Position numbers and translations under genes: made by a program. A DNA stretch of 64,000 nt from an uncultured Actinomycetota bacterium (GTDB lineage Bacteria > Actinomycetota > Actinomycetes > Streptosporangiales > Streptosporangiaceae), in NCBI GenBank assembly GCA_963833885.1, contig CAWHZU010000023.1, forward strand, positions 56,935-120,934, in the 5' to 3' direction. Of the stretch, positions 11,062 through 32,899 are shown piece by piece; position 1 is the stretch's first letter; each line of letters begins with the position of its first letter. A model generated the notes under the pieces. That model was given only the letters and a program-made list of their open reading frames with translations. It was not told the DNA's origin and did not search any database.

Positions 11062-11585
11062 GCTCGTTCCCCGTTCAGCTGTGGTTCTGTGTTCTGCCAG
11101 TCGTCGGCGAGCTCCCGCAGGCGCCGCAGCCCGCGCGACGCGGCCGACTTGACCGTGCCCTCCGGCCAGCCGAGCACCGCCGCCGTCTCGGCCTCGGTCA
11201 GCTGCTCCCAGTACCTGAGCACCAGCACCGCGCGCTGCCGCGGCGGCAACTGGAGCAGCAGGCGGACTAACGCGTCGCGCAGGTCCACCTCGGCGATCGG
11301 GTCGGCGGGCGGCGGCGCGGCCGCGCGGAGCAGCAGCAGCTTGCGCTGCAGCCTGCCCTGCCGCCGGAAGCCGTCGGCGGCCAGGTTGTAGAGCGTCCGC
11401 CGCAGGTAGCCCTCGGGGTCGCCGTCGAACCTGCGCCAGTGCCGCAGCAGCCGCTCCAGCGCGGTCTGCAGCAGGTCCTGGCCGGCCTCCCGGCTGCCGG
11501 TGAGCAGCACGGCGGTGCGCATCAGCCGGTCGGCCCGCTCGGCGAGGAAGCGCTCAAGCTCCCCGACCGCTCGGTCATCTGCCAT
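11058..11585 (-). CDS. ECF-type RNA polymerase sigma-70 factor
   Basis: Region 2 (LLQTALERLLRHWRRFD...YLRRTLYNLAADGFRR) and region 4 (LPPRQRAVLVLRYWEQLTEAETAAVLGWPEGTVKSAASRGLRRLR). AAAGGAGGA RBS before the ATG. Confidence 0.9.
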   Translation of the reverse strand: MADDRAVGELERFLAERADRLMRTAVLLTGSREAGQDLLQTALERLLRHWRRFDGDPEGYLRRTLYNLAADGFRRQGRLQRKLLLLRAAAPPPADPIAEVDLRDALVRLLLQLPPRQRAVLVLRYWEQLTEAETAAVLGWPEGTVKSAASRGLRRLRELADDWQNTEPQLNGERA

Positions 11586-11690: not shown

Positions 11691-13133
11691 CTACCGCCGG
11701 TGCCGCACGCCCAGATCGGCGAGGGCCGTCCGGGCAGCCCAGGCGCCGCACATGCCGTGCACGCCGCCGCCGGGCGGGGTCGATGCGGAGCAGAGGTAGA
11801 CGCCGGGCAGCGCGGTGCGGTACGGGTTCCACCGCGGTGTGGGGCGCAGCACGGTCTGCCACAGCGTGCTGGCCCCGCCGCTGATGTCGCCGCCGACGTA
11901 GTTGGGGTTGTACTGCTCCATCTCGGTGGCGGTGCGGACCGACCTGGCCAGGATCAGGTCGCGGAAGCCGGGCGCGAACCGCTCGATCTGCGCCTCGATG
12001 CGGGCGGACATGTCCACGTCCGAACCGCGCGGCACGTGGCAGTACCCCCACAGCGTCTGCTGCCCGGCCGGGGCCCGGCTGGGATCGACCACGCCCGCCT
12101 GGGCGATCAGGCAGAACGGGCGCTCCGGGTGACGTCCGGCTGCCACGTCGGCCTCGGACGCCGCTACCTCGGCGAACGTGCCGCCCACGTGTACGGTGCC
12201 AGCCTCCCGGCAGGCGGGGGCCTGCCAGGGCACCGACCCGCTGAGCGCCCAGTCGACCTTGCAGACGCCGGGGCCATACCGGAACCGCTGGAGCGCCCGC
12301 CGCGACCTGGCCGGGAGCCGGTCGCCCGCGAGCGCGACGAACTGGCGCGGGGTCACATCCAGCAGCACCGCACGTGCCTTTGGCAGGTCGCGGAGCGACG
12401 TGACCCAGCGGCCGGTCTCCATCCGGCCGCCCAGCGAGGTGAGCTCGGTGACCAGCGCGTCGGTCAGCCTGGCGCTGCCACCCTCGACAAAGGGCCAGCC
12501 AACCGAGTGCGCGATCATCAGGAACAGCAGGCCGAAGGAGCTGGTCAGCGGCTTATTGAGCGGAAGCATCGTGTGCGCGGCCGCGCCCGCGAGCAGGCTC
12601 TTTGCCTCATCCCCGCGGAACCGCCGGGCCAGCACGCTGGCTGGCAGCAGGCCCTCGGTGCCGAACCTGGCCATCGCCAGCGGGTGGGCGGGAAGCGTGC
12701 GCCCCAGCGGCCCGAGCACCGTGGGCAGGATCAGTGGCAGGTCCTGCGCCAGCGGCCCGAGCAGCCGCCGGTACGTGCGCGCGTCGGGCCCGAGCTCCGC
12801 GGCGGTCTCGTCGACCGACCCGGCGGCGGCTACGGCACGGCCGCCGTCCAGCGGCTGGGCGAAGGCCACCTTCGGGGTCAGCAGCCTGACCCCGAAGGTG
12901 GCCAGGTCCGTGCCGGCAAAGAATGGCGAGGCGCTGGCCAGCGGGTGCACCGCCGAGCAGACGTCGTGCCAGAACCCCGGCAGCGTCAGTTCCTCGGTCC
13001 TGCAGCCGCCGCCCGGCGTGCCCGCTCCGTCGATGACGTGCACGGACAGGCCGGCCCTGGCCATGGTCAGCGCGGCGGCGAGCCCGTTCGGCCCGGAACC
13101 GACCACCACCGCGTCAACGCCGTCAGAGCTCAA
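11691..13133 (-). CDS. Phytoene desaturase-family NAD(P)/FAD-dependent oxidoreductase (CrtI-like)
   Basis: N-terminal dinucleotide fold DAVVVGSGPNGLAAALTMARAGLSVHVIDG. 480 aa CrtI/amine-oxidase-like architecture. Confidence 0.8.
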   Translation of the reverse strand: MSSDGVDAVVVGSGPNGLAAALTMARAGLSVHVIDGAGTPGGGCRTEELTLPGFWHDVCSAVHPLASASPFFAGTDLATFGVRLLTPKVAFAQPLDGGRAVAAAGSVDETAAELGPDARTYRRLLGPLAQDLPLILPTVLGPLGRTLPAHPLAMARFGTEGLLPASVLARRFRGDEAKSLLAGAAAHTMLPLNKPLTSSFGLLFLMIAHSVGWPFVEGGSARLTDALVTELTSLGGRMETGRWVTSLRDLPKARAVLLDVTPRQFVALAGDRLPARSRRALQRFRYGPGVCKVDWALSGSVPWQAPACREAGTVHVGGTFAEVAASEADVAAGRHPERPFCLIAQAGVVDPSRAPAGQQTLWGYCHVPRGSDVDMSARIEAQIERFAPGFRDLILARSVRTATEMEQYNPNYVGGDISGGASTLWQTVLRPTPRWNPYRTALPGVYLCSASTPPGGGVHGMCGAWAARTALADLGVRHRR

Positions 13134-14058
13134 AGATCTCGCCCTCCGCGGCCACTATCACTTCGGGCTGGGCGGGACGGCCCGGCACCTCGCCCGGGAC
13201 CCCGGCGACCCGGCTCGCCACGTCGCCCGGGACCCCGGCGACCCGGCTGGCCACCTCGCCCCGGATTCCCGCGACCCGGCTGGCCACCTCGTCGAGCGCG
13301 GCGTCGGTGCGGCCCGGCTTGTGATGGGTCAGCACGACCCGCCGCGCCCCGGCCCGCCGGCCGAGCCCGATCGCGTAGTCGATCGCCGCGTGCCCGAAGA
13401 ACGCCTCGGCGGGGACCTCGTCGGCGAGCAGGAACGCGTCGTGCAGCAGCACGTCGGCGTCGCTGGCGAGCTCGAGCGCGGCGGCGTGGTACTCGCCCCA
13501 CCCCTCGGGCCCCGGCCCGAGGGCCGTGGGGCAGTGGTCGGGCAGGTACGCGATCACGCTGGACCCGTCGCTGACCCGGTAGCCGAGCGTCGCGCCGCCC
13601 TTGTGCGGTATCGCCCGGGCCTCGATCGTGAAGCCCTCGGCCTTCAGCTGCCCGGGCGCCACCGTGCCGAAGGTCCACGCGCCGCGCAGCTCGCTCGGCC
13701 CGATCGGGAAGTGCGGCGGCGACATGCCCTTGGCCAGCGCCTGCTCCGCGGTGGCGCCGTCCTCCTGCTCGGGCAGCAGCAGGCTGACCCGCGATCCCTC
13801 CCGGTCCCCGCCGGTGAAGAACGGCAGCCCGTGCACATGATCCCAGTGCAGGTGGGTGAGCAGGATCGTGCCGTCGAACGGCTGGCCGCCGAGCAGGGGC
13901 GTGACCTGACGCAGGCCGGTGCCCGCGTCCAGGACCAGCGTCGGCCTGGCATCGTCGTCGTGCGCGATGGCCACGCAGGAGGTGTGCCCGCCGTAGCGAA
14001 GGAAGTCGGCGCCGGGCGCCGGGGTCGAGCCGCGGACCCCACAGAGATACAGACGCAC
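13123..14058 (-). CDS. MBL-fold metallo-hydrolase with C-terminal 11-residue tandem repeats
   Basis: HLHWDHVHG (HxHxDH) zinc motif. C-terminus EVASRVAGIRG-EVASRVAGVPG-DVASRVAGVPG-EVPG. Confidence 0.8.
   Translation of the reverse strand: MRLYLCGVRGSTPAPGADFLRYGGHTSCVAIAHDDDARPTLVLDAGTGLRQVTPLLGGQPFDGTILLTHLHWDHVHGLPFFTGGDREGSRVSLLLPEQEDGATAEQALAKGMSPPHFPIGPSELRGAWTFGTVAPGQLKAEGFTIEARAIPHKGGATLGYRVSDGSSVIAYLPDHCPTALGPGPEGWGEYHAAALELASDADVLLHDAFLLADEVPAEAFFGHAAIDYAIGLGRRAGARRVVLTHHKPGRTDAALDEVASRVAGIRGEVASRVAGVPGDVASRVAGVPGEVPGRPAQPEVIVAAEGEIFEL
13174..13290. repeat. 33-bp in-frame tandem repeat (about 3.3 copies) inside the MBL hydrolase gene
   Basis: GACCCGGCT anchor recurs at 13207, 13240 and 13273 (period 33 bp). 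Confidence 0.7.
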
Positions 14059-14068
14059 TCCGTCGATC

Positions 14069-15085
14069 CTATGCCTGGCTCCGGACCTGCCCCGCGTCTT
14101 CCCTTCGGTGCCCGCCGGACAGTTCTTCCAGCGCCTGCCGGTCGAACTGGTCGGCGCCGACCGAGGCCGCCTTGCACGGGGTGACCGCCACCAGCGTCGC
14201 GGTCCGGGTGCCGCCCTCGAGGTGGGCTCGCTCCCCCAGCATGGCGCCGGGCCCGCACTCGGCCAGCCGCTCCCCGTCCCGTTCCACCCGGATCACGCCG
14301 TCGAGCAGCAGGTAGACGTCGGTCCCCGGCTCCCCCTGGCGCGCTAGCACGTCCCCCGCCGCCAGGCGGCGGATCGTGGGCTTGCCCTCGCCGTGCATGA
14401 GCTGGACGGACAGTTCCCGCTCCAGCGCCGTCCCCACGGCGGTCACCAGGGCCTTGGACTCCTCGTCGCCCCACGGGGTGTGCCGCCCGAACGACCTGCG
14501 GTACCAGTCGGCGAAGTCGGTCAGCCCGGTTTTGTGCGAGAGCACGCCCTTGGCGTCGTAGATCCAGTGCCGCGGGAACGGGCTGGCGCCGACCACCTCG
14601 GACTCGGCCGTCCCGTCCGCGTGCAGGGTCAGCGACAGCGTGCTCCACACCAGCGGTGCCTGCCACTGTACGAACGGCTTGCGGCGCACCCGCCGCGGCG
14701 CTGGCAGCCCGGTCCGGCCCCCGACGGTCTGCACGAACCGGACCCACCCGTCGCCGCGTTCCGGCTCCCGCTGGATGTCGGGGAGCTGGACCGCCTGGAA
14801 CCGGTAGCTCAGCATGCCGAGCCGGACGGTGGTCGAGCCCATCATGCCGCCGCCGTCGTAGCCGCAGCCGGTGACGGCGCCCGAGGCGTCGACCTCGACC
14901 CAGGCCCGCAGCACGTTCGCGAACCGGAACTTGTCGGTGGCGCGGAGCGCCTCGAGGTCGTCGATCCGGTCCGGCGGCGGGTCGTCGTAGTGCGTGAACC
15001 CGGCGTCGAAGGCCGCACGGGTTCCCCCGGTCACAGCTTCCGACGGAATCCAGGAAAGGGAGGTGATGCAGCTTTCGTATCGCAT
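14069..15085 (-). CDS. Cyclic-nucleotide-binding (CAP_ED) domain protein with an uncharacterised about 230 aa N-terminal domain
   Basis: C-terminus LAAGDVLARQGEPGTDVYLLLDGVIRVERDGERLAECGPGAMLGERAHLEGGTRTATLVAV is a cNMP-binding beta-barrel with the phosphate-binding cassette (GERA). Internal start MRYESC chosen because the upstream ORF extension is Arg-rich junk. Confidence 0.7.
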   Translation of the reverse strand: MRYESCITSLSWIPSEAVTGGTRAAFDAGFTHYDDPPPDRIDDLEALRATDKFRFANVLRAWVEVDASGAVTGCGYDGGGMMGSTTVRLGMLSYRFQAVQLPDIQREPERGDGWVRFVQTVGGRTGLPAPRRVRRKPFVQWQAPLVWSTLSLTLHADGTAESEVVGASPFPRHWIYDAKGVLSHKTGLTDFADWYRRSFGRHTPWGDEESKALVTAVGTALERELSVQLMHGEGKPTIRRLAAGDVLARQGEPGTDVYLLLDGVIRVERDGERLAECGPGAMLGERAHLEGGTRTATLVAVTPCKAASVGADQFDRQALEELSGGHRREDAGQVRSQA

Positions 15086-15186
15086 ACCCTCATCGTCGCG
15101 CCACAGCGGTGCCGCAGGCCAGGATGGTGCCAGGCGTCTCCTGGTGTGCCTACCACCACGGGCGCGGCTGCTGGTACCCGCCGGGT

Positions 15187-17712: not shown

Positions 17713-17886
17713 GTTGCATCACCCTCGCCCATGCCCGTCGGCGTCACGGTGTCTCACCGTGTCCGAGACCGGCCGCTACGGCCAGCATGCTGGCTGGCGT
17801 CCGCCGGGTGTGTCAGCACCACCCGTCCCCGGGATGCCGCTGCCAGGTGAGCCGGCAACGGTGTGCTAGTACTACCTCCCCTCTAG

Positions 17887-19290
17887 GTGGCTGCTCACTG
17901 GCGGCAGGACCGCGGATGCGAGAGCTTAAATGCCGTGGGACACAGTGCGCTGCCCGAACGAGCCATCGGCGTCTTCCTCGCCGACGACAACCTGATCGTG
18001 CGCGAGGGCGTCCGGGCGCTCATCGAGCGGGATCCGGACCTGCGTGTGGTGGGGGTGGCCGCCGACTACGACGAGGTCATCAGCGGCACCGCCGCCACCG
18101 AGCCGCAGGTCCTGGTCACCGACGTGCGGATGCCGCCGTCCTTCCACCGCGAGGGCATCGACGCGGCCAAGGAGGTGCGCAAGCGCTTCCCGGGCACCGG
18201 CGTAGTGGTGCTGTCGCAGTACGACGACCCCGAGTACGCGGTGTCATTGCTGGCCGAGGGCTCGGCCGGGTACGGCTACCTGCTGAAGGACAGGGTCGCC
18301 GAGGGCAACCAGCTTGCCGACGCCATCCGCAGCGTGGCCACCGGCGGCACCGCGCTCGACCCCGCGATCGTCGAGGCGCTGGTCCAGCCGGTCACCTCGC
18401 CCGGCGAGCTCGCTCCCGCCGAGGAGGAACTGCTCGGCATGATCGCCGAGGGCAAGCCGATCAAGGCGATCGCGGTCGCCAGGCGGGTGCCGCCCGAGGC
18501 GGTGGACGCCGAGGTCGAGGCCGTGTTCGTGAAGCTGGCGGCCGGCGTCGCCCAGGGCAACCCGGCGGCGCTCAACCGGCTCCGGCTGCTGCACCAGGCG
18601 ATCGTCGACCGCGAGGAGCAGGGCGAGACGCTGTCCCGGCTGCTGCCGGGCAGGCTCGCCGAGAAGCTCCGCAACTCCAGGCAGCGGATCGGCGAGACCG
18701 AGACCGTGGTCGTGACCGTGCTGATGAGCGACATCCGGTCCTACTCGACGATCGCCGAGCACGCCGACCCGGCAAAACTCGCAGGTCAGCTCAACACTCA
18801 CCGAGCGGCCATGAACCGTGCGATCCTCGGTGAGGGGGGTACCGTCATGCAGTTTGTCGGCGACGCGGTGATGGCGGTGTTCGGCGCGCCGTTCCCCCAG
18901 CCCGACCACCCCGACCGGGCCGTTGCGGCGGCGGCGGGCATGCACGCGCTGCAGGCCGAGATCAACGCGAGCTGGGCCGCCGAGGGGCTGCACGAGTTCG
19001 GCCTCGGCATCGGGCTGTCCACCGGCCAGGTCGCCGCGGCCCTGCTCGGCTCGGAGGAACGGCTCGAGTACACGCTGGTCGGCGACACGGTCAACCTGTC
19101 CCAGCGGCTGCAGCAGCTCGCGGAGGCTGGCGAGACCGTGCTGTCCGAGCCCACCCACCGCGCCCTGACCGTTCCGTCGGACGCGATCGCGCTGCCAGCC
19201 CAGCTGGTGAAGGGCCGCGATACGCCAATCCTCGCCTACAAGCTTGCCCGCAGCGGCACCCCCGTCGCTGCCGGGCCTATGAACCCGTGA
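17887..19290 (+). CDS. Response regulator with receiver, LuxR-type HTH and class III adenylyl/guanylyl cyclase domains
   Basis: NarL-type REC (VFLADDNLIVREGVRALI...VLVTDVRMPP...VVVLSQYDD...GYLLK). LuxR HTH-like segment (ELLGMIAEGKPIKAIAVARRV...AVFVKLA). CHD cyclase (VVVTVLMSDIRSYSTIAE...FVGDAVMAVFGAP...GIGLSTGQVAAALLGSEERLEYTLVGDTVNLSQRLQ). Confidence 0.85.
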   Translation: MAAHWRQDRGCESLNAVGHSALPERAIGVFLADDNLIVREGVRALIERDPDLRVVGVAADYDEVISGTAATEPQVLVTDVRMPPSFHREGIDAAKEVRKRFPGTGVVVLSQYDDPEYAVSLLAEGSAGYGYLLKDRVAEGNQLADAIRSVATGGTALDPAIVEALVQPVTSPGELAPAEEELLGMIAEGKPIKAIAVARRVPPEAVDAEVEAVFVKLAAGVAQGNPAALNRLRLLHQAIVDREEQGETLSRLLPGRLAEKLRNSRQRIGETETVVVTVLMSDIRSYSTIAEHADPAKLAGQLNTHRAAMNRAILGEGGTVMQFVGDAVMAVFGAPFPQPDHPDRAVAAAAGMHALQAEINASWAAEGLHEFGLGIGLSTGQVAAALLGSEERLEYTLVGDTVNLSQRLQQLAEAGETVLSEPTHRALTVPSDAIALPAQLVKGRDTPILAYKLARSGTPVAAGPMNP

Positions 19291-19315
19291 ATACCCAACC
19301 GACCCGGGGGGGCCG

Positions 19316-20050
19316 ATGACCGAGAACCGTGCCGCACTGACCATGCGCGGCGTGCGCAAGACCTTCGAGGCCGAGAACGCGCCGGTACGGGCGCTGCGCG
19401 GCGTGGACCTGACCGTGGCTTCGGGCGAGTTCGCCGCGCTGATGGGCCCGTCCGGCTGCGGCAAGTCCACCCTGCTGAACCTCGTGGCCGGGCTCGAGCT
19501 CGCCGACGAGGGAACGATCACGGTCGCCGACGAGGAGGTGACCGGGCGCGGTGAGGACGACCTGGCCCGGCTGCGGCGCAAGCACATCGGCATCATCTTC
19601 CAGTTCTTCAACCTGCTGGAGGGGATGACCGTGCTGGAGAACGTTGCGCTGCCCGCCGTGATCGCCGGCCGCAAGCGCAAGATGGCCGAGACCAGGGCCA
19701 GGGATTTGCTGGACCTGCTCGGCATCGGCGACAAGGCGGCCGCCGTGCCCGGCGTGCTGTCCGGCGGGCAGCGGCAGCGGCTGGCGATCGCCAGGGCGCT
19801 GGCGAACGAGCCGACCCTGCTGCTGGCCGACGAGCCGACCGGCGCGCTGGACTCCGATGGCGGCCAGGAGGTCATCGAGCTGCTGAGCCGACTGCACGCG
19901 GGCGGCCAGACCATCGTCATGGTCACCCACGACGCGCAGGTGGCCGGCGCGGCCGGGCGCATCGTGCGGATGCTCGACGGCCGCATCGTGCAAGCCGACC
20001 CGGGCGGGAGCACCGAGACCGGCGCCGGCATCCCGGTCGAGGCGCACTAG
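19316..20050 (+). CDS. MacB/LolD-type ABC transporter ATP-binding protein
   Basis: Walker A GPSGCGKST, signature LSGGQRQRLAIARAL, Walker B LLLADEPTGALD. Confidence 0.95.
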   Translation: MTENRAALTMRGVRKTFEAENAPVRALRGVDLTVASGEFAALMGPSGCGKSTLLNLVAGLELADEGTITVADEEVTGRGEDDLARLRRKHIGIIFQFFNLLEGMTVLENVALPAVIAGRKRKMAETRARDLLDLLGIGDKAAAVPGVLSGGQRQRLAIARALANEPTLLLADEPTGALDSDGGQEVIELLSRLHAGGQTIVMVTHDAQVAGAAGRIVRMLDGRIVQADPGGSTETGAGIPVEAH

Positions 20051-20072
20051 CCGTCGCCGGCCCGCCGCCTAC

Positions 20073-22610
20073 CTGGCGTGGTACCGGCTCCGAGCCACGC
20101 TGCGCCGCCGGCTTGGCGGCTACCTGGCGCTAGCCGTGCTGGTGGGCCTCATCGGCGGCATAGCGCTGGCCTCCGTGACCGCGGCCCGGCGGACCGAGTC
20201 GTCCTACCCGGACTACCTGGCCAGCACGAACCCGTCGAGCCTGATCATTCAGCCGAACTCGAACATCAACGTGTCCTCGGCGGCCCAGGCGAACCAGATC
20301 TACCAGCACATGCTCAGCCGGCTGCGGCACCTGCCGCACGTGACCGGGCTGGCCACGGCCGATGCCGTCAACGCCGCCATGCTGACGCCGCGCGGCGGGT
20401 ACGGCACGGTGCTGTTCACCCAGGTGCAGCTTGTGACCAGCGGTGATGGCATGTTCACCCGCCAGGACCGGCTGACGGTCACCGCAGGCCACCGGGCGGT
20501 GCGCGCGAACCAGGTGGTGGCGACTGCCAGGGCCGCCGCCGTGCTGCACCTGCATGTGGGCTCCCGGCTGCGGCTGGGTGTCTGGGCGTCGAGCCCCAAG
20601 CCCGGGCTGCCGCCGTTCTACCGCAAGCTCGACCTGACCGTGACCGGCATCGGCGTGGTGAGCACGCAGATCGTGCAGGACGACATCGACGCCGACCGCA
20701 CCGGGTTCCTCATCGGCACCCCGGCGCTGGACCGGGAGTTCATGCCGTGCTGCACCGGAACCTCCTATATCGGGCTGCAGGTAGCGGGCGGCGCCCGGTA
20801 CGACGCGGCCGTCGACCAGGGCTACGTGAACCTGGCGACCTCGATCTTCGGCGCCGGATCCGTCCAGTTGCTGCAGCTGCTGCAGGTCTACAACACCTCG
20901 GCGATCGAGGCGGAGGCGCAGCGCGCGATCTACCCGGAGGCGATAGCCCTGGGCGTGTTCGGGCTGATCGCCGGGCTCGCCGCGCTGATCATCGGCGCCC
21001 AGGCGGTGTCCCGGCAGCTTCGCGCGGCCACCGACGACGCGAGCGTCCTGCGGGCGCTCGGCGCCGGCCCGCTGGCCGCCACCGCCGACGGCGTGCTCGG
21101 GGTGCTCGCCGCCGTGGTCGCCGGGGCGCTGCTCGCTGTTGCCGTCGCGATCACGCTGTCCCCGTTCTCGCTTTTCGGGCCCGTCCGGCAGGCACAGCCG
21201 GGGCGGGGGTTCTACGTCGACGCCACGGTGCTCGGGCTGGGCGCGCTCGCGCTCATCCTGGTCCTCGGCGGGGTGGCCGCGGTCATCGGCTACCGCCAGG
21301 CACCACACCGCGCCGCCGCCCGCACGCACGGCGCCGACCGCGGCTCGGCCCTGGTGCGCGCCGGGCTCGGCGCCGGGCTCGGCGCCACCGGCGTGGCCGG
21401 GCTGCGGTTCGCGCTCGAGCCGGGCCGGGGACGGACCGCGGTGCCGGTCAGGTCCGTGCTCACCGGCGCGGTGCTGGCCGTGACTGTGATCGCTGCCACG
21501 CTGACGTTCGGCGCCAGCCTCACCAACCTCATCGCCCGGCCCGCCCTCTACGGCTGGGACTTCAGCTACGCGCTGTACTCGACCGATGGATGGGGACCGT
21601 TCCCGGCGGCGCGGGTCACACCGATTCTTGACCGGGACAAGCTGATCGCCACCAGCACCGGCGTGTATTTCCTGACCGTGCAGATCGACGGGCAGACGGT
21701 CCCGGGGATCCTGTCCCCCGCCCGCCCGGCGGTCGGCCCGCAGATCCTGTCCGGCAGCGGGCTCAACGGTCCCGGCGACATCGTGCTCGGCCCGGCCACG
21801 CTCGCCGCGCTGCACAAGAAGGTCGGCGACAAGGTCACCGTGCGGCTCGGCCCGGTGATCCGCGACGACACGCTGACGGTCTCCGGCACCGCGGCGCTGC
21901 CCGCGCTCGGCGACACGCTCGGGATCCATCCCTCACTGTCCACCGGCGCGATCCTGCCGGTCAGCGCCGTATCCAAGGCCGCGCTTGACGAAGATGGCCC
22001 GGATTCCGGCCCCAACGCGATCCTGATACGGCTGCGGCCCGGCGTCAGCCAGGCCGCCGGGCTGCGGTCGCTGCAGCAGATCGCCAACACCTACAACAAC
22101 ATCGTGCACTCCCCGCAGACGGTCGCCGAGGCGGGCCCGTCGGCGCTGGAGCTCGTGGCCAACGTGCTGCCGGTGCAGCGGCCCGCCGAGATCGTCAACT
22201 ACAAGTCCATGGGCACGATGCCGGTGATCCTGGCCGCAGGCGTGGCCGTCGGCACGGTCGCCGCGCTCGGGCTGGCGCTGGTCACGTCGGTGCGGCGGCG
22301 GCGGCGCGACCTCGCGCTGCTGAAGACGCTGGGCTTCACCCGCAGGCAGCTCGCAACGACCGTCGCCTGGCAGTCCACCGTGGTCGCCATCGTGGGGCTG
22401 GTCATCGGGATACCGCTGGGCATCGCGGTCGGCCGCTGGCTGTGGATCGTGTTCGCCCGCGAGCTGTCCACGGTGCCGGATGCGGTCGTCCCGGCCGGAT
22501 CGGTGGCGCTGGCCGCCGTCGCCGCGCTGGTCCTGGCCAACCTGGTCGCCGCGCTGCCCGGCCGTTCCGCCGCCCGCACCCCGGCCGCCCTGCTGCTCCG
22601 GGCGGAGTGA
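20073..22610 (+). CDS. FtsX/MacB-like permease, paralogue 2 (no canonical start codon in the conserved N-terminus)
   Basis: ORF track starts at GTG 20136 (MLVGLIGG). The in-frame upstream sequence encodes the conserved (L)AWYRLRATLRRRLGGYLALAVLVGLIGG seen in all paralogues. The only candidate initiator is CTG 20073, aligned with the Met of MAWYRF in paralogue 1. No purine-rich RBS. Confidence 0.7.
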   Translation: MAWYRLRATLRRRLGGYLALAVLVGLIGGIALASVTAARRTESSYPDYLASTNPSSLIIQPNSNINVSSAAQANQIYQHMLSRLRHLPHVTGLATADAVNAAMLTPRGGYGTVLFTQVQLVTSGDGMFTRQDRLTVTAGHRAVRANQVVATARAAAVLHLHVGSRLRLGVWASSPKPGLPPFYRKLDLTVTGIGVVSTQIVQDDIDADRTGFLIGTPALDREFMPCCTGTSYIGLQVAGGARYDAAVDQGYVNLATSIFGAGSVQLLQLLQVYNTSAIEAEAQRAIYPEAIALGVFGLIAGLAALIIGAQAVSRQLRAATDDASVLRALGAGPLAATADGVLGVLAAVVAGALLAVAVAITLSPFSLFGPVRQAQPGRGFYVDATVLGLGALALILVLGGVAAVIGYRQAPHRAAARTHGADRGSALVRAGLGAGLGATGVAGLRFALEPGRGRTAVPVRSVLTGAVLAVTVIAATLTFGASLTNLIARPALYGWDFSYALYSTDGWGPFPAARVTPILDRDKLIATSTGVYFLTVQIDGQTVPGILSPARPAVGPQILSGSGLNGPGDIVLGPATLAALHKKVGDKVTVRLGPVIRDDTLTVSGTAALPALGDTLGIHPSLSTGAILPVSAVSKAALDEDGPDSGPNAILIRLRPGVSQAAGLRSLQQIANTYNNIVHSPQTVAEAGPSALELVANVLPVQRPAEIVNYKSMGTMPVILAAGVAVGTVAALGLALVTSVRRRRRDLALLKTLGFTRRQLATTVAWQSTVVAIVGLVIGIPLGIAVGRWLWIVFARELSTVPDAVVPAGSVALAAVAALVLANLVAALPGRSAARTPAALLLRAE

Positions 22611-22634
22611 AGCCATGCGTCAAAGGAACTCGCT

Positions 22635-25151: not shown

Positions 25152-25161
25152 GGGACATGGG

Positions 25162-27747
25162 ATGAGTCGCCTCGATGCCGGCCCCAACCAGCGAGTGAGC
25201 GCCAGCGTGCCCCCGGCACGCGGCGCGCTGCCGCGGCTGGCGTGGTACCGCTTCCGGGCCACGTTCCGCCGCCGCTGGGGCGGCTACCTGGCCTTGGCCG
25301 TGCTGATCGGCCTGGTCGGCGGCGTGGCGATGGGCTCTATGGTGGCTGCCAGGCGCACCGACGCGTCGTACCCGAAGTTCCTGGCCAGCACCAACCCGTC
25401 GGATCTCGTCGTCGAGCCGTTCACGAAGACGAATTACTCGCCCGCCTTCCTCCGCCAGCTGGCCCGGCTGCCGCATGTGACCGGGGTCGCGGCAGCCGTG
25501 CCGCTCACGGCGGCCACCCTCACCCCGAGCGGGAAGCTCGGCACAGTCCTGCTCGCGCACGTGCAGCTGGCCGGCACTCTCGCCGGTGCTGACGGCATCT
25601 TCTCTGCCCAGGACCGGATGACGATCGTGCGAGGACGCGCGGCCGATCCGGCGCGGCCGGACGAGGTGGTGGCTACCCCGGTTGCGGTCGCGCTGCTGCA
25701 CCTGCACGTGGGGTCGCAGGTACGGGTTGGGCTGATCCGCAACTCCGGCAGCGGCGGCCTCTACGGACATGCGGATCTCACGGTCGTGGGGATCGGGGTG
25801 CTCAACACCCAGGTTCTGCAGGACAGCGTCGACTCCGGCCGGACCGGCTTCCTGGTTGGCACGCCCGCGCTCACCCGGGAATTCGCCTCCTGCTGCGCCA
25901 GCGGCATGACCGTCGGCCTGCGCCTGGACGGCGGCGGCACGTACGACACCGCCGTCGGCAACGAGTACCAGCAGCTGCTGGCCACCAGCCCCTACATCTC
26001 GCGCGGCGGATCCGAGCTCTACGTATACGTGACCGCCGCCATCGAGGCTCAGGCGCAGCGGGCGATCCGCCCGGAGGCCATCGCGCTCGCCGTCTTCGGG
26101 CTGATAGCCGGGCTGGCCGCGCTGATCATCGGGACCCAGTCCGTGGCCCGGCAGCTCCGCGCCGGGGCGGACGACGCCGGGGCGCTGCGGGCGTTCGGCG
26201 CCGGACCGGCGATGATCATGGCCGACGGACTGCCCGGCATCGTGGCGGCGCTGGCGGCCGGGGCGCTGCTCGCCGTCGGCGTGGCCGTCGCGCTGTCGCC
26301 GTTCTCGCTGTTCGGGCCGGTGCGTGAAGTGGAACCAGGACACGGCGTCTACCTCGACTGGGCGGTACTCGGGCTCGGGGCCCTCGGACTGGTTCTCCTG
26401 CTCGGCGGGGTGGCGGCCTTGATCGCCTACCGCCAGATGCCGCACCGGCTGGCCGGCCGCGAGCATGAAGCTGACCGGGGACCAGCTGCGGTCCGGGTAG
26501 TGGCTGCCGCCCGGCTCCCGGCCCCGGCAGTGGAGGGAATGCGGCTTGCCCTGGACCCGGGGCGGGGGCGCACCGCGGTACCGGTCCGCTCTGTCCTGGC
26601 GGGCGCGGTACTGGCCATGACAGTGGTCAGCGCCACCCTCACCTTCGGAGCCAGCCTGGCGACGCTGGTCTCGCATCCGGCGCTGTACGGGTGGAACTTC
26701 AGCTACGCCCTCTACGCGGTCCAGGGCTGGGGCAGCGTGCCCGTCAGGTGGGCCGGCCCGCTGCTGGCCCGCGACCGGGCGGTGGCCGCCACGACGGGGG
26801 TGGTCTTCGCGACGGTCCAGATCAACGGCCAGACCGTCCCCGCCATGGTGGCCCCCACCCGTCCGGCGGTGGGCCCGCACATCCTGTCCGGGCACGGGCT
26901 CGACAGCAGCCACGAACTCGTCCTCGGCCCGGCCACCCTGGCTCAGCTGCACCAGCGGGTCGGCAGCACCGTGACGCTGGCCAGCGGCAGCTTCCATGTC
27001 CGGCTCAGGATCGTGGGCACGGCCACAATGCCAGCGATCGGCAGCGTGCTGACCGTTCATACCTCGATGAGCACCGGGGCGCTGTTCTCCACGGCCGTTC
27101 TCCCCGAGGGAGCCGGTTCCGGACCGTTCGGTCCGCTCCTTTATGGGCCCAACGCCATCCTCATCCGGCTGCGGCCCGGGATCAGCCAGGCGGCAGGCCT
27201 GCGATCGATGCAGGCCGTCAGCCGACAGCTCGCCGGAGCGCTGAACTCGCCGCGCGAGGAGGCGGCCACCGGCGGTCTATCGGTCGCGGACGCCGTAGAC
27301 CTGCTGCCGGCCCAGCGGCCGGCCGAGATCGTGAACTACCGGGCCATGGGGGCCATGCCAGCAGTGCTGGCCGGCGGGCTCGCCGCTGGAGCCGTGGCAG
27401 GCCTCGGCCTGACGCTGGTCGCCTCGGTCCGGCGCCGGCGCCGGGACTTCGCGCTCCTGAAAACGCTCGGTTTCACCCGCGGGCAGCTGGCAGGCGCGGT
27501 TGCCTGGCAGTCTTCCGCGATTGCCGTGATCGGCCTGGTGATCGGCGTGCCGGTGGGCATCGCGGCCGGCCGCTGGCTATGGCTGCTATTCGCGCATGAG
27601 CTGTCGGCGGTACCCGACCCGACGGTCCCGGTCGGCTCGATCGCCCTGGCCGGGCTTGGCGCCGTGGCACTGGCCAACGTGGTCGCCGCGCTCCCGGCGC
27701 GGCGGGCCGCGCGAACGCCGGCGGCTGAAGTCCTGAGAGCGGAGTGA
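25162..27747 (+). CDS. FtsX/MacB-like permease, paralogue 4
   Basis: 861 aa, same architecture. GAGGGA RBS. Stop overlaps the kinase start (ATGA). Confidence 0.85.
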   Translation: MSRLDAGPNQRVSASVPPARGALPRLAWYRFRATFRRRWGGYLALAVLIGLVGGVAMGSMVAARRTDASYPKFLASTNPSDLVVEPFTKTNYSPAFLRQLARLPHVTGVAAAVPLTAATLTPSGKLGTVLLAHVQLAGTLAGADGIFSAQDRMTIVRGRAADPARPDEVVATPVAVALLHLHVGSQVRVGLIRNSGSGGLYGHADLTVVGIGVLNTQVLQDSVDSGRTGFLVGTPALTREFASCCASGMTVGLRLDGGGTYDTAVGNEYQQLLATSPYISRGGSELYVYVTAAIEAQAQRAIRPEAIALAVFGLIAGLAALIIGTQSVARQLRAGADDAGALRAFGAGPAMIMADGLPGIVAALAAGALLAVGVAVALSPFSLFGPVREVEPGHGVYLDWAVLGLGALGLVLLLGGVAALIAYRQMPHRLAGREHEADRGPAAVRVVAAARLPAPAVEGMRLALDPGRGRTAVPVRSVLAGAVLAMTVVSATLTFGASLATLVSHPALYGWNFSYALYAVQGWGSVPVRWAGPLLARDRAVAATTGVVFATVQINGQTVPAMVAPTRPAVGPHILSGHGLDSSHELVLGPATLAQLHQRVGSTVTLASGSFHVRLRIVGTATMPAIGSVLTVHTSMSTGALFSTAVLPEGAGSGPFGPLLYGPNAILIRLRPGISQAAGLRSMQAVSRQLAGALNSPREEAATGGLSVADAVDLLPAQRPAEIVNYRAMGAMPAVLAGGLAAGAVAGLGLTLVASVRRRRRDFALLKTLGFTRGQLAGAVAWQSSAIAVIGLVIGVPVGIAAGRWLWLLFAHELSAVPDPTVPVGSIALAGLGAVALANVVAALPARRAARTPAAEVLRAE

Positions 27748-29873
27748 TGATGGACCTGATGACGAACGCCGCCGTCGGCGATCACGCCACCACCGCGCCG
27801 CCTTGGGGCGGCAGTACGGGCCGCCGGCTCGTGGCGGGACTGCTCGTACCCCTGGTCACGATCGTGATCGTCGTGCTCGGGCTGCGTACGGCGGGCCCGC
27901 TCCCGGCCGTGCAGGCCGTCGCCTTCGGCCTGGTAATCGTCGGCGCGCTGTCCGGCGCCATCCTCGCCCGTTCAGCGCAGCGGGTGGCCCTGTGGCAGGT
28001 GGCCTTCGGCGCGCTGGCGGCGTCGGTGGCGCTCACCGCCGCGCGCCTGGGCGACCAGCCCGGCGGGCACCAGGTCGCGCGCGGCGTGGCCACGTTCGCC
28101 GTGCCGGTCGTCATCGCCGTCTCCGTGAACATGCTGCTCGCCCTTCCCGACGGCCGGCTGGCCAGCCGGGGCAGGAGAATCGGCACCGGGATCGCCTATG
28201 CCGCGGCGGCCGCGTCTGGGCTGGTGCTGGCGGCCGCCGGGCGCCCGTTCCCTGCCTGGGCGGTCGCGGTGGCCTGGCCGATCGCCGCGGCCTGCGCTCT
28301 CCCCGCGGTGCGGCTGCGCTACCTGGCTGCTGCCGCGCGAGACCAGCAGCGGATGCAATGGATGGCCGTCGGAGCCGTGCTGGCCGCCGATTCGGCGCTG
28401 GTGGCCGGGGTCCTGCACGTGCTCGTCGGCTGGCCGGGCCCGGTCGCCGCCGTGGCGGCGGGGTGCGCGTCACTGCTCGCGTTCGGCATGATGACCGGCG
28501 AGCTGTCGTCGCTCGGGTCCTACGGCGGCCGGGTCCTGGTCCAGGTACTGTCGATCGCCGGGTTCACCACCGTGGTCGCGGCCATCTACCTGGTGATCGT
28601 GCTCGGCATCGGCAGCGGGCCGAGCGACGCCGCCGATCGCGAGGTCCTCGGGCTCTCGATGCTGGCCGCCGCGGTCGCCGCGATCGGGTACCTGCCGGCC
28701 AGGGACCGGCTGGTGGCGTCGGCCACCCGCTTCGTCTACGGGGCCAAGGAGGCCCCCGACGAGACCCTGCGCACCTTCGGCTCGCGGCTGACCAGGGCGA
28801 TCCCCATGGACGAGCTGCTGCTGCAGCTCGCCGAGTCGCTGCGCAAGACCATGGCGCTGACCAGCGCCGAGGTCTACACCGGTCAGGGAGACGTGCTGGA
28901 ACGCGTCGCCGCGGTGCCGGACACCGGACCGCGGTCGGTCGTGGTGACGGACCGGGAGCGCGCTGTCGTGGCCAGGGCCGGGGTTTCCGGGAACGCCTGG
29001 GCCTCGGTCTGGCTGCCCGGTGTGCTGGACGGGCGGGCCCAGGTCCAGGTCAGGGTCGCGCCGGTCAGCCACGCCGGCGAGCTGCTCGGGCTGATCATCG
29101 CGGAGCGGGCCGCCACCGCCGACACGTTCTCCGACGAGGACGACCGGGTGCTGACCGAGCTGGCCCGGCAAGTCGGCCTGGCAGTGCACAACGCGCGGCT
29201 GGACACCGCGCTGCAGACCACGCTGGACGAGCTGCGCAAGCAGGCCGACGAGCTGCGCCAGTCCCGGGCCCGCATCGTGGCCAGCGGCGACGCCGAGCGC
29301 CGCCGGGTGGAGCGCAACCTGCACGACGGCGCGCAGCAGCACCTGGTGGCGATGGCGGTGAACCTGCGCCTGGCCCGGGACATCATGGCCGACGACCCGG
29401 ACGCGGCCGGCGAGATGATGGAGATGCTCGCCGACGAGGTCAAGAACACGATCCAGGAACTGCGCGAGCTCGCGCACGGCATCTACCCGCCGCTGCTGGC
29501 CGACAGCGGGCTCGGCGAGGCGCTCCGCGCGGCGGCGAACCGCAGCCCGCTGGCGGTCACCGTGACCGCCGACGGGATCGGCCGGTACACCCCGGACATC
29601 GAGGCCGCGGTCTACTTCTGCTGCCTGGAGGCGCTGCAGAACGCCGGCAAGCACGCACCGCAGGCCAGGGTGGCGGTACGGGTCTGGGAGGAGTCGGGCG
29701 GCCTGCTGTTCGCGGTCACCGACGACGGCCCGGGTTTCGACGCGGCCTCCGCTCGCAAGGGCCACGGGTTCGTCAACATGGCTGACCGGCTGGGCGCGAT
29801 CGGCGGCACGGCGCGCTGGGAGTCGCAACCCGGCCACGGCGCCCAGGTCCTGGGTACGATCCCGCTCCTCTGA
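27744..29873 (+). CDS. Multi-TM sensor histidine kinase (HisKA_3/NarL-type) with GAF-like linker
   Basis: About 8 predicted N-terminal TM helices, a GAF-like region, an H-box ERRRVERNLHDGAQQHLVAMAV, and a C-terminal HATPase_c (GFVNMADRLGAIGGT). Confidence 0.85.
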   Translation: MMMDLMTNAAVGDHATTAPPWGGSTGRRLVAGLLVPLVTIVIVVLGLRTAGPLPAVQAVAFGLVIVGALSGAILARSAQRVALWQVAFGALAASVALTAARLGDQPGGHQVARGVATFAVPVVIAVSVNMLLALPDGRLASRGRRIGTGIAYAAAAASGLVLAAAGRPFPAWAVAVAWPIAAACALPAVRLRYLAAAARDQQRMQWMAVGAVLAADSALVAGVLHVLVGWPGPVAAVAAGCASLLAFGMMTGELSSLGSYGGRVLVQVLSIAGFTTVVAAIYLVIVLGIGSGPSDAADREVLGLSMLAAAVAAIGYLPARDRLVASATRFVYGAKEAPDETLRTFGSRLTRAIPMDELLLQLAESLRKTMALTSAEVYTGQGDVLERVAAVPDTGPRSVVVTDRERAVVARAGVSGNAWASVWLPGVLDGRAQVQVRVAPVSHAGELLGLIIAERAATADTFSDEDDRVLTELARQVGLAVHNARLDTALQTTLDELRKQADELRQSRARIVASGDAERRRVERNLHDGAQQHLVAMAVNLRLARDIMADDPDAAGEMMEMLADEVKNTIQELRELAHGIYPPLLADSGLGEALRAAANRSPLAVTVTADGIGRYTPDIEAAVYFCCLEALQNAGKHAPQARVAVRVWEESGGLLFAVTDDGPGFDAASARKGHGFVNMADRLGAIGGTARWESQPGHGAQVLGTIPLL

Positions 29874-30056
29874 CCGCCAGGATCCCCGACTGGTCGGCTA
29901 AACGCTGTAGTACACCGCGAAGCTGACGCCAGCGACCACTAACAAGGCAACAGCAGCGATGAGGCACCCGAGAACAAGCCGACGTAATCGCGGTGCATTC
30001 CGGTTTGGCTACCCAGGAGCGTCTATGGCATTCGTCCTCGCCTCGGCCGCCCGGGG

Positions 30057-30449
30057 TCAGCAGGTGGCGAACGAGCCCGAGTTCCGCTCTTCCCAGAGCC
30101 GGCGGATCGTGTCGGAAGCCAGCCGCTCCTTGTTGACGTAGGCGGTCGCGCCGCTCTGGGACGCCGCCGGGGGAAGGTCGGTCGCGTCGTAGGTCGAGCA
30201 CAAGATCACGACCACGTCGGGATGGGCCGCCGTGATCTGCCGCGTGGCCTCGATCCCGCTCATCTCCGGCATGTTGATGTCCATCAGCACGAGAGCCGGG
30301 TGCAGCCGGTCGACCAAGTCGATCGCCTCCCGGCCGCTGGACGCCTCACCGGCGAACTCGAAGCCCTCGAGGCGGCGCAGCACGGCGCGGGCGGCCACGC
30401 GGAATGGCGCCTGATCATCCACGACGAGCACGGAGCGAGGGCTGGTCAC
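30057..30449 (-). CDS. Single-domain response regulator (receiver only, CheY-like)
   Basis: VLVVDDQAPFRVAARAVL...ALVLMDINMPEMSGIEA...VVILCSTYD, 130 aa, no output domain. Confidence 0.85.
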   Translation of the reverse strand: MTSPRSVLVVDDQAPFRVAARAVLRRLEGFEFAGEASSGREAIDLVDRLHPALVLMDINMPEMSGIEATRQITAAHPDVVVILCSTYDATDLPPAASQSGATAYVNKERLASDTIRRLWEERNSGSFATC

Positions 30450-30563
30450 AAGATCAGCCTTTCACGGCCCACGGCCGCTGCCGAGGGTGCTGCCATGCAA
30501 AGCGGGGGTGTGGCCACCCCCCCGGCGTGACCGTTGCTTCCCGCGTTACCTTTCCGCCCTGCG

Positions 30564-31238
30564 TCAACGTTCCTCCCGCTGGCTGAGGAAGACCAGCACC
30601 GCCTTGACCCGGCGGTTAACGTCCTTCTCCTCAGAGAGCCCCAGCTTCGCGAAGATCGAGTTGGTGTGCTTCTCCACGGCGCGCTCGGTGACGAACAAGG
30701 TGGCGGCGATCGCGGAGTTGCTCTTGCCCTGGGCCATCTCGGCCAGGATCTCGGATTCCCGCGGCGTCAGTGAGGACAGGCCCGACTGGCGCTCCTGCGC
30801 GCGGGCGCGCACCAGCTCGTCGACGACCGTGGGGTCGATCACCGAACCGCCCTGCGCCACCACCCGGATCGCCCTGGCCAGCTCGTCCACGCTGCCGATC
30901 CGCTCCTTGAGCAGGTAGCCGCGCCCGGCCGAGCCGTGCTCGAGCAACGCAAGCGCGTACCCGGGGGCGGTGAACTGGGTTAGCACGATCACGCCCATCT
31001 CGGGGTGGTTCTGCCGGATCCAGGCGGCGGCCTTGATGCCCTCGTCGGTGCCGGTGGGCGGCATCCGGATGTCGGTCACGACAACGTCGGGCAGCTGCTC
31101 GCCCACGACAGCAAGTAGCTGCGGCAGGTCGGACGCTGCCCCGACCAGCTCGAAATCCTCGTTGGCCGCGACCAGGCGGGAGATTCCCTCCCTGAGGAGC
31201 ACATGGTCCTCGGCCAGCGCGACCCTGATCTTTCCCAT
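30564..31238 (-). CDS. NarL/LuxR-family response regulator
   Basis: REC plus LuxR HTH (LTPRESEILAEMAQGKSNSAIAATLFVTERAVEKHTNSIFAKL). Start set at MGKIRVALAEDH; ORF 30564-31313 is overextended. Confidence 0.9.
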   Translation of the reverse strand: MGKIRVALAEDHVLLREGISRLVAANEDFELVGAASDLPQLLAVVGEQLPDVVVTDIRMPPTGTDEGIKAAAWIRQNHPEMGVIVLTQFTAPGYALALLEHGSAGRGYLLKERIGSVDELARAIRVVAQGGSVIDPTVVDELVRARAQERQSGLSSLTPRESEILAEMAQGKSNSAIAATLFVTERAVEKHTNSIFAKLGLSEEKDVNRRVKAVLVFLSQREER

Positions 31239-32648: not shown

Positions 32649-32899
32649 CAGGACAGAAACGTGACAAAGACGGAACGCGCCGACATGCACTCGACCACGG
32701 CGACCCTGCTGTGCCTGGGCACCGGCTCGTCCGACCAGGCAGCAAACGCCTCGGTGCCGCCCCGCACCGGGAGCAGCACCTCGCCCGGCCCGTGCGCCGG
32801 GATGGAGACAGTTACTCTCCCGATCGTCCCGACAAGGTCTTGTCGCATGTCAGTCACTGCGGTCAGCCAGCTTTCATCGCCCGCTGCGGACTCCAGCAC
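32648..32899 (-). CDS. NfeD-like OB-fold protein (short, soluble C-terminal-domain type)
   Basis: GRVTVSIPAHGPGEVLLPVRGGTEAFAAWSDEPVPRHSRVAVVE beta-barrel. GTG start. TAAAAT -10-like hexamer (RC at 32924-32929) about 25 nt upstream. Confidence 0.6.
   Translation of the reverse strand: MLESAAGDESWLTAVTDMRQDLVGTIGRVTVSIPAHGPGEVLLPVRGGTEAFAAWSDEPVPRHSRVAVVECMSARSVFVTFLS

Follow-up and report, generated by a model that had tools for sequence, protein, structure and literature searches.

Receiver-controlled class III nucleotide cyclases, cyclic nucleotide-binding (CNB) receptors encoded beside cyclases, and two-component systems linked to transporters are known kinds of signalling systems. We have analysed a gene cluster in which such components stand together, at positions 11691 to 31238 of a 64,000-nucleotide stretch of DNA (contig CAWHZU010000023.1 of assembly GCA_963833885.1; this whole stretch is called the window, and all coordinates refer to it). 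The source is a metagenome-assembled uncultured member of the Streptosporangiaceae with high-GC DNA (68-75% GC in the window), and the window proteins were searched with Pfam and NCBIfam. The cluster encodes a membrane histidine kinase, three receiver proteins, one of which carries a cyclase domain, an ATP-binding cassette (ABC) ATPase of the MacB type, four permeases, a candidate cyclic-nucleotide receptor, a hydrolase with the metallo-beta-lactamase (MBL) fold, and a flavoprotein. We interpret it, with a probability that we put at about 0.55, as a branched two-component system which yields both a transcriptional response and a cyclic-nucleotide signal and which is conserved in uncultured soil and peat Actinomycetota.

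Control of a class III cyclase by a receiver is described for CyaC from Spirulina and Anabaena, which, according to PMC1183210, is activated by phosphotransfer to this domain (Kasahara & Ohmori 1999, cited there). The window protein shares with CyaC the fusion of a two-component receiver upstream of a class IIIb-type cyclase, and CyaC is among the solved catalytic domains closest to it. In contrast to CyaC, it is a simple response regulator derived from a NarL-type factor, with a decayed helix-turn-helix (HTH) and with Gln in place of the substrate Lys, and its gene shares an operon with those for an ABC ATPase and a HisKA_3 kinase.

For Rv0386 from Mycobacterium tuberculosis, non-canonical substrate selection is mentioned in PMC3466318 (citing Castro et al. 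2005). The same 2012 census, in its passage on proteins that combine a cyclase with a LuxR domain, places those from Actinobacteria in Mycobacterium only (PMC3466318). Rv0386 and the window protein are both actinobacterial class III cyclases combined with a LuxR-type HTH, and Rv0386 is the nearest precedent for the oddity in substrate selection reported below. Its domain order is different (cyclase, NB-ARC/AAA, LuxR, with no receiver), and the second specificity residue is Thr in the window protein, not Asn. Rv0386 reportedly has the pair Gln-Asn in place of Lys-Asp and shows some guanylyl cyclase side activity.

A coupling of transporter and kinase is represented by BceRS-BceAB from Firmicutes, to which the locus had been likened in a preliminary description made from the sequence. 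The likeness holds loosely at the genetic level, in that a MacB-family ATPase and FtsX-type permeases are linked to a kinase and a regulator, and the shared idea that the state of a transporter feeds a kinase is plausible. It does not extend to permease topology, kinase type, and regulator family. BceB has 10 transmembrane (TM) helices and one extracytoplasmic domain between TM7 and TM8, whereas the permeases analysed here consist of a duplicated 4-TM unit with two such domains. BceS is an intramembrane-sensing 2-TM kinase without a sensor domain and has an OmpR-type partner, whereas the kinase from the window has about 10 TM helices, a GAF and a HisKA_3 domain, and NarL-type partners. In addition, the permease genes are often found outside the operon, and a cyclic-nucleotide branch is added.

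The pair XC_0250 (a guanylyl cyclase) and XC_0249 (a CNB-GGDEF protein) from Xanthomonas provides an example of a class III cyclase beside the gene for a dedicated CNB-domain receptor, and the XC_0249 structure (5h5o) is among the fold matches of the receptor candidate from the window. The latter has an all-beta domain as output instead of GGDEF, the cyclase is receiver-driven, and there are extra genes for an MBL hydrolase and a flavoprotein.

With the MacB (type VII) transporters and the ADOP FtsX permeases, the locus has in common the ATPase family, the FtsX C-terminal domain, and a duplicated unit of TM1, domain, and TM2-4. However, the match of the permeases to the NCBIfam ADOP model TIGR03434 is weak (28.8 bits compared to a cut-off of 622), and MacB_PCD (PF12704), which the preliminary description had expected, gave no match at E<=10 in two of the permeases (P2 and P4). 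We take the ADOP model name to stand for "Acidobacterial duplicated orphan permease". Finally, the MBL-fold phosphodiesterases for cyclic nucleoside monophosphates (cNMP), namely the class II enzymes/CpdP and the phage anti-Pycsar protein Apyc1, resemble the MBL hydrolase from the window in fold, in the HxHxDH motif, and in having a gene beside cNMP-signalling genes. They differ in that no significant sequence match was obtained to them; the nearest relatives are RNase Z/ELAC enzymes.

The combination of components was sought in the full-text literature and no description was found, consistent with the preliminary description, which knew of no such architecture. This combination, the NarL-derived cyclase regulator with its decayed HTH, the invariant Gln variant, and the receptor domain all appear to be undescribed in the literature searched.

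Gene organization and conservation across relatives

The cluster consists of two divergent operons. On the minus strand, the order of transcription is permease P4, cNMP-binding protein, MBL hydrolase, and flavoprotein. On the plus strand, the genes for the receiver-cyclase, the ATPase, the permeases P1 to P3, and the kinase follow each other. The genes for a lone receiver and a NarL regulator are convergent to the plus-strand operon and are located 3' of the kinase gene. All genes named in the preliminary description are present according to the open reading frame (ORF) listing, and nearly all of its domain calls agree with Pfam and NCBIfam. Its range for the locus (13123-31238) leaves out the flavoprotein gene (11691..13133), which it had named correctly.

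Within each operon, the genes overlap or are tightly packed. The receptor operon ends with the flavoprotein gene, which has an 11-nt overlap with the MBL stop. At the junction between P3 and the kinase, the sequence GTGATGATG spans the TGA stop, so that the kinase start overlaps or abuts the P3 stop. The overlap reads GTGA or TGATG rather than ATGA as proposed previously.

A scan with one genome per species revealed at least 358 stretches which encode relatives of the cyclase protein. We analysed the best 80 of these (74-96% identical), assigning the ORFs of each locus to window proteins by the best BLASTP hit, and counted for each gene only those loci that are long enough to show it. The best matches listed in the protein searches with the receiver-cyclase and the kinase were all relatives of at least 68% identity. 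All 80 loci are from metagenome-assembled genomes of soil, peat, or palsa, which are labelled as Streptosporangiaceae, as Acidimicrobiaceae/Acidimicrobiales, or merely as Actinomycetota.

The gene content and its synteny are conserved among these species-level genomes. The ATPase gene is directly downstream of the cyclase gene in 72 of 73 loci, and a kinase gene is found in 65 of 68. The cNMP-binding protein is encoded divergently upstream of the cyclase in 59 of 76 loci, usually with a spacer of 190-240 bp. The MBL hydrolase (53/72), the flavoprotein (51/70), the lone receiver (55/66), and the NarL regulator (57/64) are encoded in most of the loci as well. Exact copies of the ATPase occur on metagenome contigs of 227-432 kb with identical gene order. 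The core order is kept at protein divergence down to 53-60% for some components. Flanking genes, e.g., that of an extracytoplasmic function (ECF) sigma factor, are not conserved. A lack of gene-neighbourhood conservation in relatives, which would have spoken against the system as originally proposed, was not encountered. With a core that is syntenic in 80 genomes, the genes cluster far more than chance would allow.

In some genomes, the whole module occurs twice. The loci L008 and L010 are on the same contig (CAWFUM010000025.1), about 130 kb apart, and locus L037 has tandem copies of the genes for the flavoprotein, the MBL hydrolase, the cNMP protein, the cyclase, the ATPase, and a permease. 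A locus on a 2.9-kb contig that was binned as Myxococcaceae (L076) carries the genes for a receiver-cyclase (74% identity) and a cNMP protein; this is most likely a binning error rather than an occurrence outside of the Actinomycetota.

The permeases behave differently from the core. The kinase gene follows directly after the ATPase gene, with no permease gene between them, in 56 of 65 loci. Permease genes lie inside the operon in the other 9 loci (one in 4, two in 2, and three in 3 loci). Within 10 kb, the number of permeases ranges from 0 to 5, with at least one in 44 of 53 full-length loci, and their positions vary, often beyond the flavoprotein gene or divergent from the NarL gene. As to the genetic linkage of transporter and two-component genes known from Bce systems, the picture is mixed: the ATPase is linked in 72/73 loci, a permease lies inside the operon in 9/65, and 9/53 have none within 10 kb. 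The closest sister species (L005) retains P4 and P2 as fragments only, located where the window has the full genes (L005:9489-9823 and L005:14902-15225), which indicates a recent gain or loss of permease paralogues. P4 is missing between the genes for the cNMP protein and the cyclase in most loci, the gap there being 190-240 bp, and its insertion at this position is restricted to the lineage of the window. Because the core is kept while the permeases vary, the conserved unit consists of eight genes (cyclase, ATPase, kinase, cNMP protein, MBL hydrolase, flavoprotein, lone receiver, NarL regulator), and the four permeases of the window are a derived expansion of this lineage. The preliminary description was correct in seeing four paralogous double-FtsX proteins; as a feature of the module they do not hold.

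The receiver-cyclase

The gene for the receiver-cyclase (17935..19290, plus strand, 451 aa) most likely starts with GTG at 17935; ATG or GTG is found at the corresponding alignment column in 77 of 79 orthologs. The protein consists of a receiver domain, a degenerate remnant of a LuxR-type HTH (residues ca. 155-201), a helical linker with the motif LSRLLPGRLAEKL, and a class III cyclase domain. The receiver (PF00072, 53.5 bits) has the residues D17, D18, D63, S94, and K118, which are invariant in 80 orthologs.

The cyclase domain is confirmed by Guanylate_cyc (PF00211) with 67.9 bits compared to a cut-off of 21.9, and the closest PDB matches of the catalytic domain are Cya2, CyaB, and CyaC (class IIIb). 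Alignment to these three structures identified D266 and D310 as metal ligands and N387 and R391 as transition-state residues. D266, Q306, D310, T380, N387, and R391 are all invariant in the 80 orthologs. Adenylyl cyclases have Lys, and the guanylyl cyclase Cya2 has Glu, where Gln306 is found here; Thr380, at the second specificity position, is shared with the class IIIb enzymes CyaB and CyaC, which are adenylyl cyclases. An adenylyl cyclase would be recognized by the substrate Lys with Asp as its partner or, in class IIIb, Thr/Ser; the pair encountered here is Gln306 and Thr380. The enzyme looks active, and its nucleotide preference is not readable from the sequence. The invariant Gln at the substrate position also means that cAMP, the product assumed in the preliminary description, is not established. 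Upstream of the catalytic domain, the orthologs have an invariant REEQGETLSRLLP stretch, which resembles the cyclase-transducer element of class IIIa/b enzymes.

Residues 11-201, including the HTH segment, show 41% sequence identity (E 3e-46) to the neighbouring NarL regulator, and the NCBIfam profiles NarL and MadR align through nearly their full length. From this similarity, the N-terminal half is considered a paralogue of the adjacent regulator, which fits with a shared kinase. The HTH had been called "retained", which the data do not bear out: GerE scores 14.3 bits compared to a cut-off of 23.5, and the segment is recognizable only by the NarL alignment. The recognition helix is devoid of its polar and basic residues (PPEAVDAEVEAV compared to TERAVEKHTNSI in the NarL regulator). 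The HTH is a remnant which probably does not bind DNA.

The cyclic-nucleotide receptor candidate and the divergent promoter region

The receptor candidate (14069..15085, minus strand, 338 aa) consists of an N-terminal all-beta domain which is followed by a CNB domain at the C-terminus. More than 100 homologs with 100% query coverage speak for a start at MRYESC. The CNB domain is canonical, PF00027 being above threshold, and confirms the cNMP-binding protein of the preliminary description. The phosphate-binding cassette reads G284-E-R-A-H-L-E-G-G-T-R294-T-A-T, with Glu and Arg being kept. No TM segment was predicted for the protein, and no TIR match was obtained in Pfam.

The N-terminal domain (residues ca. 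1-225) is mostly beta in an AlphaFold2 model of moderate quality, for which the mean predicted local distance difference test (pLDDT) score is 67.8 and the strands are well predicted. It did not match any Pfam family, except for a weak DUF7317 signal in 5 of 41 members, and comparison of its profile to PDB sequences gave chance hits only. There are 1284 representatives at 50% clustering; nearly all show the same domain followed by CNB, and extra fusions are rare. On these grounds, we classify the ca. 225-aa all-beta domain as new.

With GTG at 17935 as the most likely start of the cyclase, the divergent intergenic region is 222 bp and not 174 bp as thought previously. It contains an imperfect palindrome (17860..17876; consensus GGTGTGCCTAGCACCACC, derived by aligning 60-80 upstream regions), which precedes the cyclase start codon by about 75 bp, is kept in nearly all of 60 related loci, and is a candidate operator or promoter element. 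An element similar to TGTG-CGAGAACT is found 5-8 nt before the cyclase start codon (17916-17930). Promoter and terminator scans gave nothing above shuffled expectation. A regulatory RNA was sought in the cyclase leader, where no consensus structure was detected, and no Rfam family was found anywhere in the window.

Kinase, lone receiver, and NarL regulator

The sensor histidine kinase (27750..29873, plus strand, 707 aa) has about 10 predicted TM helices by hydropathy and GAF, HisKA_3, and HATPase_c domains, with a catalytic core of the DesK/VraS type. It had been described as a multi-TM HisKA_3 kinase, which is correct, with the GAF domain now added. By sequence, no informative solved relative was found for the GAF domain. 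The AlphaFold2 model of the membrane domain was unusable (mean pLDDT 47). We considered that the membrane domain might be a cryptic FtsX permease and ruled this out by profile-profile comparison (hhalign probability 0.2%).

The lone receiver (30057..30449, minus strand, 130 aa; Response_reg, 79 bits) has an acidic pocket and a phospho-Asp motif that are invariant in 57 orthologs. The NarL/LuxR-family response regulator (30564..31238, minus strand, 224 aa) matches Response_reg and GerE.

The ABC ATPase and the permeases

The ATPase (19316..20050, plus strand, 244 aa; ABC_tran, 125 bits) belongs to the MacB/LolD/FtsE family. Its best NCBIfam matches are to the MacB, DevA, FtsE, and LolD models (E 1e-60 to 1e-66), all of them under the equivalog cut-offs, and the Walker A, signature, and Walker B motifs are conserved.

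The four permeases are P4 (15187..17712, minus strand, 841 aa) and, on the plus strand, P1 (20053..22610), P2 (22635..25151, 838 aa), and P3 (25162..27747, 861 aa). They range from 824 to 861 aa, and all four match FtsX (PF02687) with 47-70 bits, P2 and P3 in two stretches. Hydropathy predicts a 1+3+1+3 pattern, in which an extracytoplasmic domain of about 235 aa separates TM1 from TM2-4 and a second one of about 230 aa separates TM5 from TM6-8. This is a duplicated MacB-like unit and not the layout of BceB. Two features of MacB-type (type VII) transporters are thus found, namely an ATPase of this family and a 4-TM FtsX unit with an extracytoplasmic domain between TM1 and TM2; a third, the MacB periplasmic core domain (PF12704), was not detected in P2 or P4 at E<=10.

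P1 to P3 are 57-62% identical to each other and 43-48% identical to P4. The extracytoplasmic domains show only 36-57% sequence identity among the paralogues, compared to 52-83% for the membrane parts, while the N-terminal cytoplasmic stretch and TM1 are 59-71% identical, P4 included. The faster divergence of the extracytoplasmic domains, together with the conserved N-terminal stretch and TM1, fits with several permeases sharing one ATPase and having different outward-facing specificities.

P1 has 852 aa in relatives. In the window, its GTG start has lost the G by a 1-bp deletion (20048-20060, GT-C compared to GTG), as found by comparison to three near-identical contigs and the closest species (alignment including L001, L002, and L005; gene calls in L001-L003). 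The downstream frame is intact, and the next in-frame start, at 20136, leads to a protein of 824 aa. Either the assembly has an indel here, or the start codon has really been lost.

The MBL hydrolase and the flavoprotein

The MBL hydrolase (13123..14058, minus strand, 311 aa; Lactamase_B_2, 55 bits) has an HxHxDH motif (H69-L-H-W-D-H74) that is invariant in 25 orthologs. A profile search of solved structures retrieved the RNase Z/ELAC1 zinc phosphodiesterases (E 3e-9), followed by PhnP (E 0.12) and Apyc1 (E 0.48). The score with the NCBIfam model for cyclic-nucleotide phosphodiesterases, NF041851, is 26 bits compared to a cut-off of 400, and PF02112 (PDEase_II) was not matched in the Pfam search. 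These matches place the enzyme on the RNase Z/ELAC phosphodiesterase branch. Its assignment as a candidate cNMP phosphodiesterase in the preliminary description is possible in view of the intact metal motif; membership in such a family is not supported. At the 3' end of the gene there is a 33-bp tandem repeat (13178-13291; 3.5 copies, 88% matches), which encodes 11-aa units VASRVAG(V/I)(P/R)G(E/D) in the C-terminal tail. Most MBL orthologs from elsewhere align to about residue 263 only and lack the repeat tail.

The flavoprotein (11691..13133, minus strand, 480 aa) is an FAD-dependent oxidoreductase of the CrtI/amine-oxidase superfamily (NAD_binding_8, Amino_oxidase). With NCBIfam, it has only sub-threshold matches to the CrtO/CrtI family, and its sole PDB relative is CrtI (4dgk), which is remote (E 2e-4).

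A signalling model and its alternatives

In the branched system that we propose, the module would be built round one membrane histidine kinase and three receiver proteins. The kinase, which would be co-transcribed with the MacB-type ATPase and is genetically associated with variable duplicated FtsX permeases, would most likely report an envelope or transport-related state, possibly via the ATPase/permease complex. It would phosphorylate all three receiver proteins. Of these, the NarL transcription factor would provide the transcriptional output, with the GGTGTGCCTAGCACCACC palindrome as a candidate operator, the lone receiver might act as a phosphate sink or modulator, and the receiver-cyclase would be the third target. 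Phosphorylation would turn on the cyclase, which would then make a 3',5'-cyclic purine nucleotide. This may be cAMP; cGMP or mixed specificity is possible as well because the Lys that specifies adenine is an invariant Gln paired with Thr. The CNB protein would bind the nucleotide and, via its new all-beta domain, would control or act with the MBL hydrolase and the flavoprotein; alternatively, the MBL enzyme may degrade the signal. The data show the genes that are present, the catalytic and ligand-binding residues, and the conservation of synteny. From gene neighbourhood and from what is known of the protein families, we infer which proteins exchange phosphate, how the cyclase is activated, which nucleotide is made, that the receptor binds it, and what the ATPase, the MBL enzyme, and the flavoprotein do.

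Several points weigh against this interpretation. Every functional link rests on gene neighbourhood, and the synteny counts may be inflated by shared ancestry, all examples being metagenome-assembled genomes of what may be one lineage. The receptor gene is not beside the cyclase gene in 17 of 76 loci, and permeases are lacking within 10 kb in 9 of 53 full-length loci. With its own large membrane domain, the kinase could also work independently of a transporter. The change from Lys to Gln could alter or weaken catalysis, the N-terminal domain of the receptor yields no functional clue, and the MBL enzyme is in no recognized cNMP phosphodiesterase family.

The alternative that survives best is a dedicated cAMP circuit along the lines of the preliminary description. 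Here, cAMP would be made by the receiver-cyclase, bound by the CNB protein as its receptor, and degraded by the MBL hydrolase as a dedicated phosphodiesterase, and a Bce-like flux-sensing transporter would feed the kinase. The class IIIb affiliation of the nearest solved cyclases, the Thr that is shared with CyaB and CyaC at the second specificity position, the intact metal motif of an MBL enzyme from a phosphodiesterase branch, and the near-universal linkage of ATPase and kinase are as expected for such a circuit. However, all 80 orthologs have Gln instead of the adenine-binding Lys, and the MBL enzyme is remote from the known families (26 compared to 400 bits for NF041851, no PDEase_II match, E 0.48 for Apyc1). 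Moreover, the kinase is not BceS-like, and the permeases have a topology unlike BceB and are outside of the operon in 56 of 65 loci. We consider the complete circuit doubtful, while keeping it as a tentative option.

A more specific version of the branched system would go further and would be a second-messenger pathway that is widespread, yet so far undescribed, among uncultured soil Actinomycetota: a signalling unit of 10-TM kinase and MacB-type ATPase, with the permeases being optional, drives a Gln-variant cyclase, the product of which is not cAMP, or not only cAMP, and is decoded by a new family of all-beta/CNB effectors that control the MBL hydrolase and the CrtI-like flavoprotein. Taken as a whole, this chain is rather improbable.

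Its first element can also be considered on its own. The ATPase may be a signalling partner that docks on or regulates the 10-TM kinase or the receiver-cyclase, instead of a transporter motor, and the permeases may be optional accessories in some lineages. The ATPase gene is fixed after the cyclase gene (72/73), and the kinase gene is directly next to it in 56 of 65 loci. The number of permeases ranges from 0 to 5, with none within 10 kb in 9 of 53 loci, and the closest sister species retains two of the four permeases as remnants only. Yet at least one permease is found within 10 kb in 44 of 53 loci, the genes of duplicated FtsX permeases can lie away from that of the ATPase (cf. ADOP), and the N-terminal stretch and TM1 are conserved in all four paralogues, as if they share an ATPase. 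The kinase membrane domain, in turn, is unlike FtsX (hhalign 0.2%), and its model is uninformative. At most, the fixed position of the ATPase gene hints at a signalling subunit of the kinase, and we regard this role as unlikely.

A more sober explanation would be that an ordinary ABC-transporter/two-component resistance module lies beside an unconnected cNMP pair and two metabolic enzymes, with synteny reflecting ancestry. All 80 loci are indeed from related uncultured Actinomycetota, so that conservation may in part be phylogenetic inertia, and the flanking genes, such as that of the ECF sigma factor, show some turnover. On the other hand, the core order outlasts the insertion, loss, and movement of permeases at divergence down to 53-60%, and the module has been duplicated as a unit (L008/L010 and the tandem copies in L037). 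Because the core persists through permease turnover and whole-module duplication, a coincidental neighbourhood is unlikely. The paralogy between the cyclase receiver and the adjacent NarL regulator, and the divergent promoter region with its conserved palindrome, in which the receptor operon takes part, also argue against unrelated neighbours. We therefore rate this explanation as distinctly unlikely.

Defence against phages by a system similar to Pycsar, with a class III-type cyclase making a cyclic (pyrimidine) nucleotide upon infection and a CNB effector responding to it, is very improbable: PADLOC PycC models match the cyclase domain (best 73.8 bits), PycTIR and effector models match the CNB domain, and PycTIR CNB structures are among the fold matches, but these matches cover the generic cyclase and CNB domains only, a killing domain of the TIR or TM kind is missing from the effector, the cyclase is under receiver control in a two-component operon rather than being a stand-alone PycC in a defence island, the arrangement is the same in 80 genomes and is surrounded by housekeeping-type genes instead of lying in a variable island, and no relatives were found in viral contigs.

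If the wiring of the branched two-component system is as we propose, it would be a defined example of a two-component kinase whose output goes both to transcription and to a cNMP messenger, with the receptor gene next door, and it would occur in abundant uncultured soil and peat actinobacteria. It would offer a natural Gln variant at the substrate-selecting position of a cyclase, usable for studies on nucleotide choice, and would tie a large uncharacterised domain to a ligand-binding module, making its function approachable. It would also be a test case for the linkage of MacB-type ATPases and interchangeable permeases to kinases outside of the Bce paradigm from Firmicutes. If the links are not real, this would be an ordinary neighbourhood of signalling and transport genes.

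Other features of the window

No tRNA was found in the window. Directly 3' of the flavoprotein gene (10081-11585, minus strand), an ECF sigma factor (175 aa) is translationally coupled to a 326-aa ORF which has one predicted TM segment and no Pfam match and is possibly an anti-sigma factor. This pair is found in the closest relatives only and is outside of the conserved core. At the other end, the NarL gene adjoins a gene for an SPFH/Band-7 protein (31353-32690).

A glycan-utilization neighbourhood (33645-48483) encodes an OmpR-type regulator, an alpha-amylase-family protein, a sugar-type ABC binding protein with a permease, and two GH15 glucodextranase-like proteins (872 and 1358 aa), the larger of which has an SLH-like C-terminal module. 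An H+-pyrophosphatase is encoded at 59927-62476. A second signalling cluster (52508-55247, minus strand) encodes a soluble GAF-HisKA_3 kinase, a NarL-type regulator, and an ABC ATPase, which are 28-35% identical to their counterparts from the main module.

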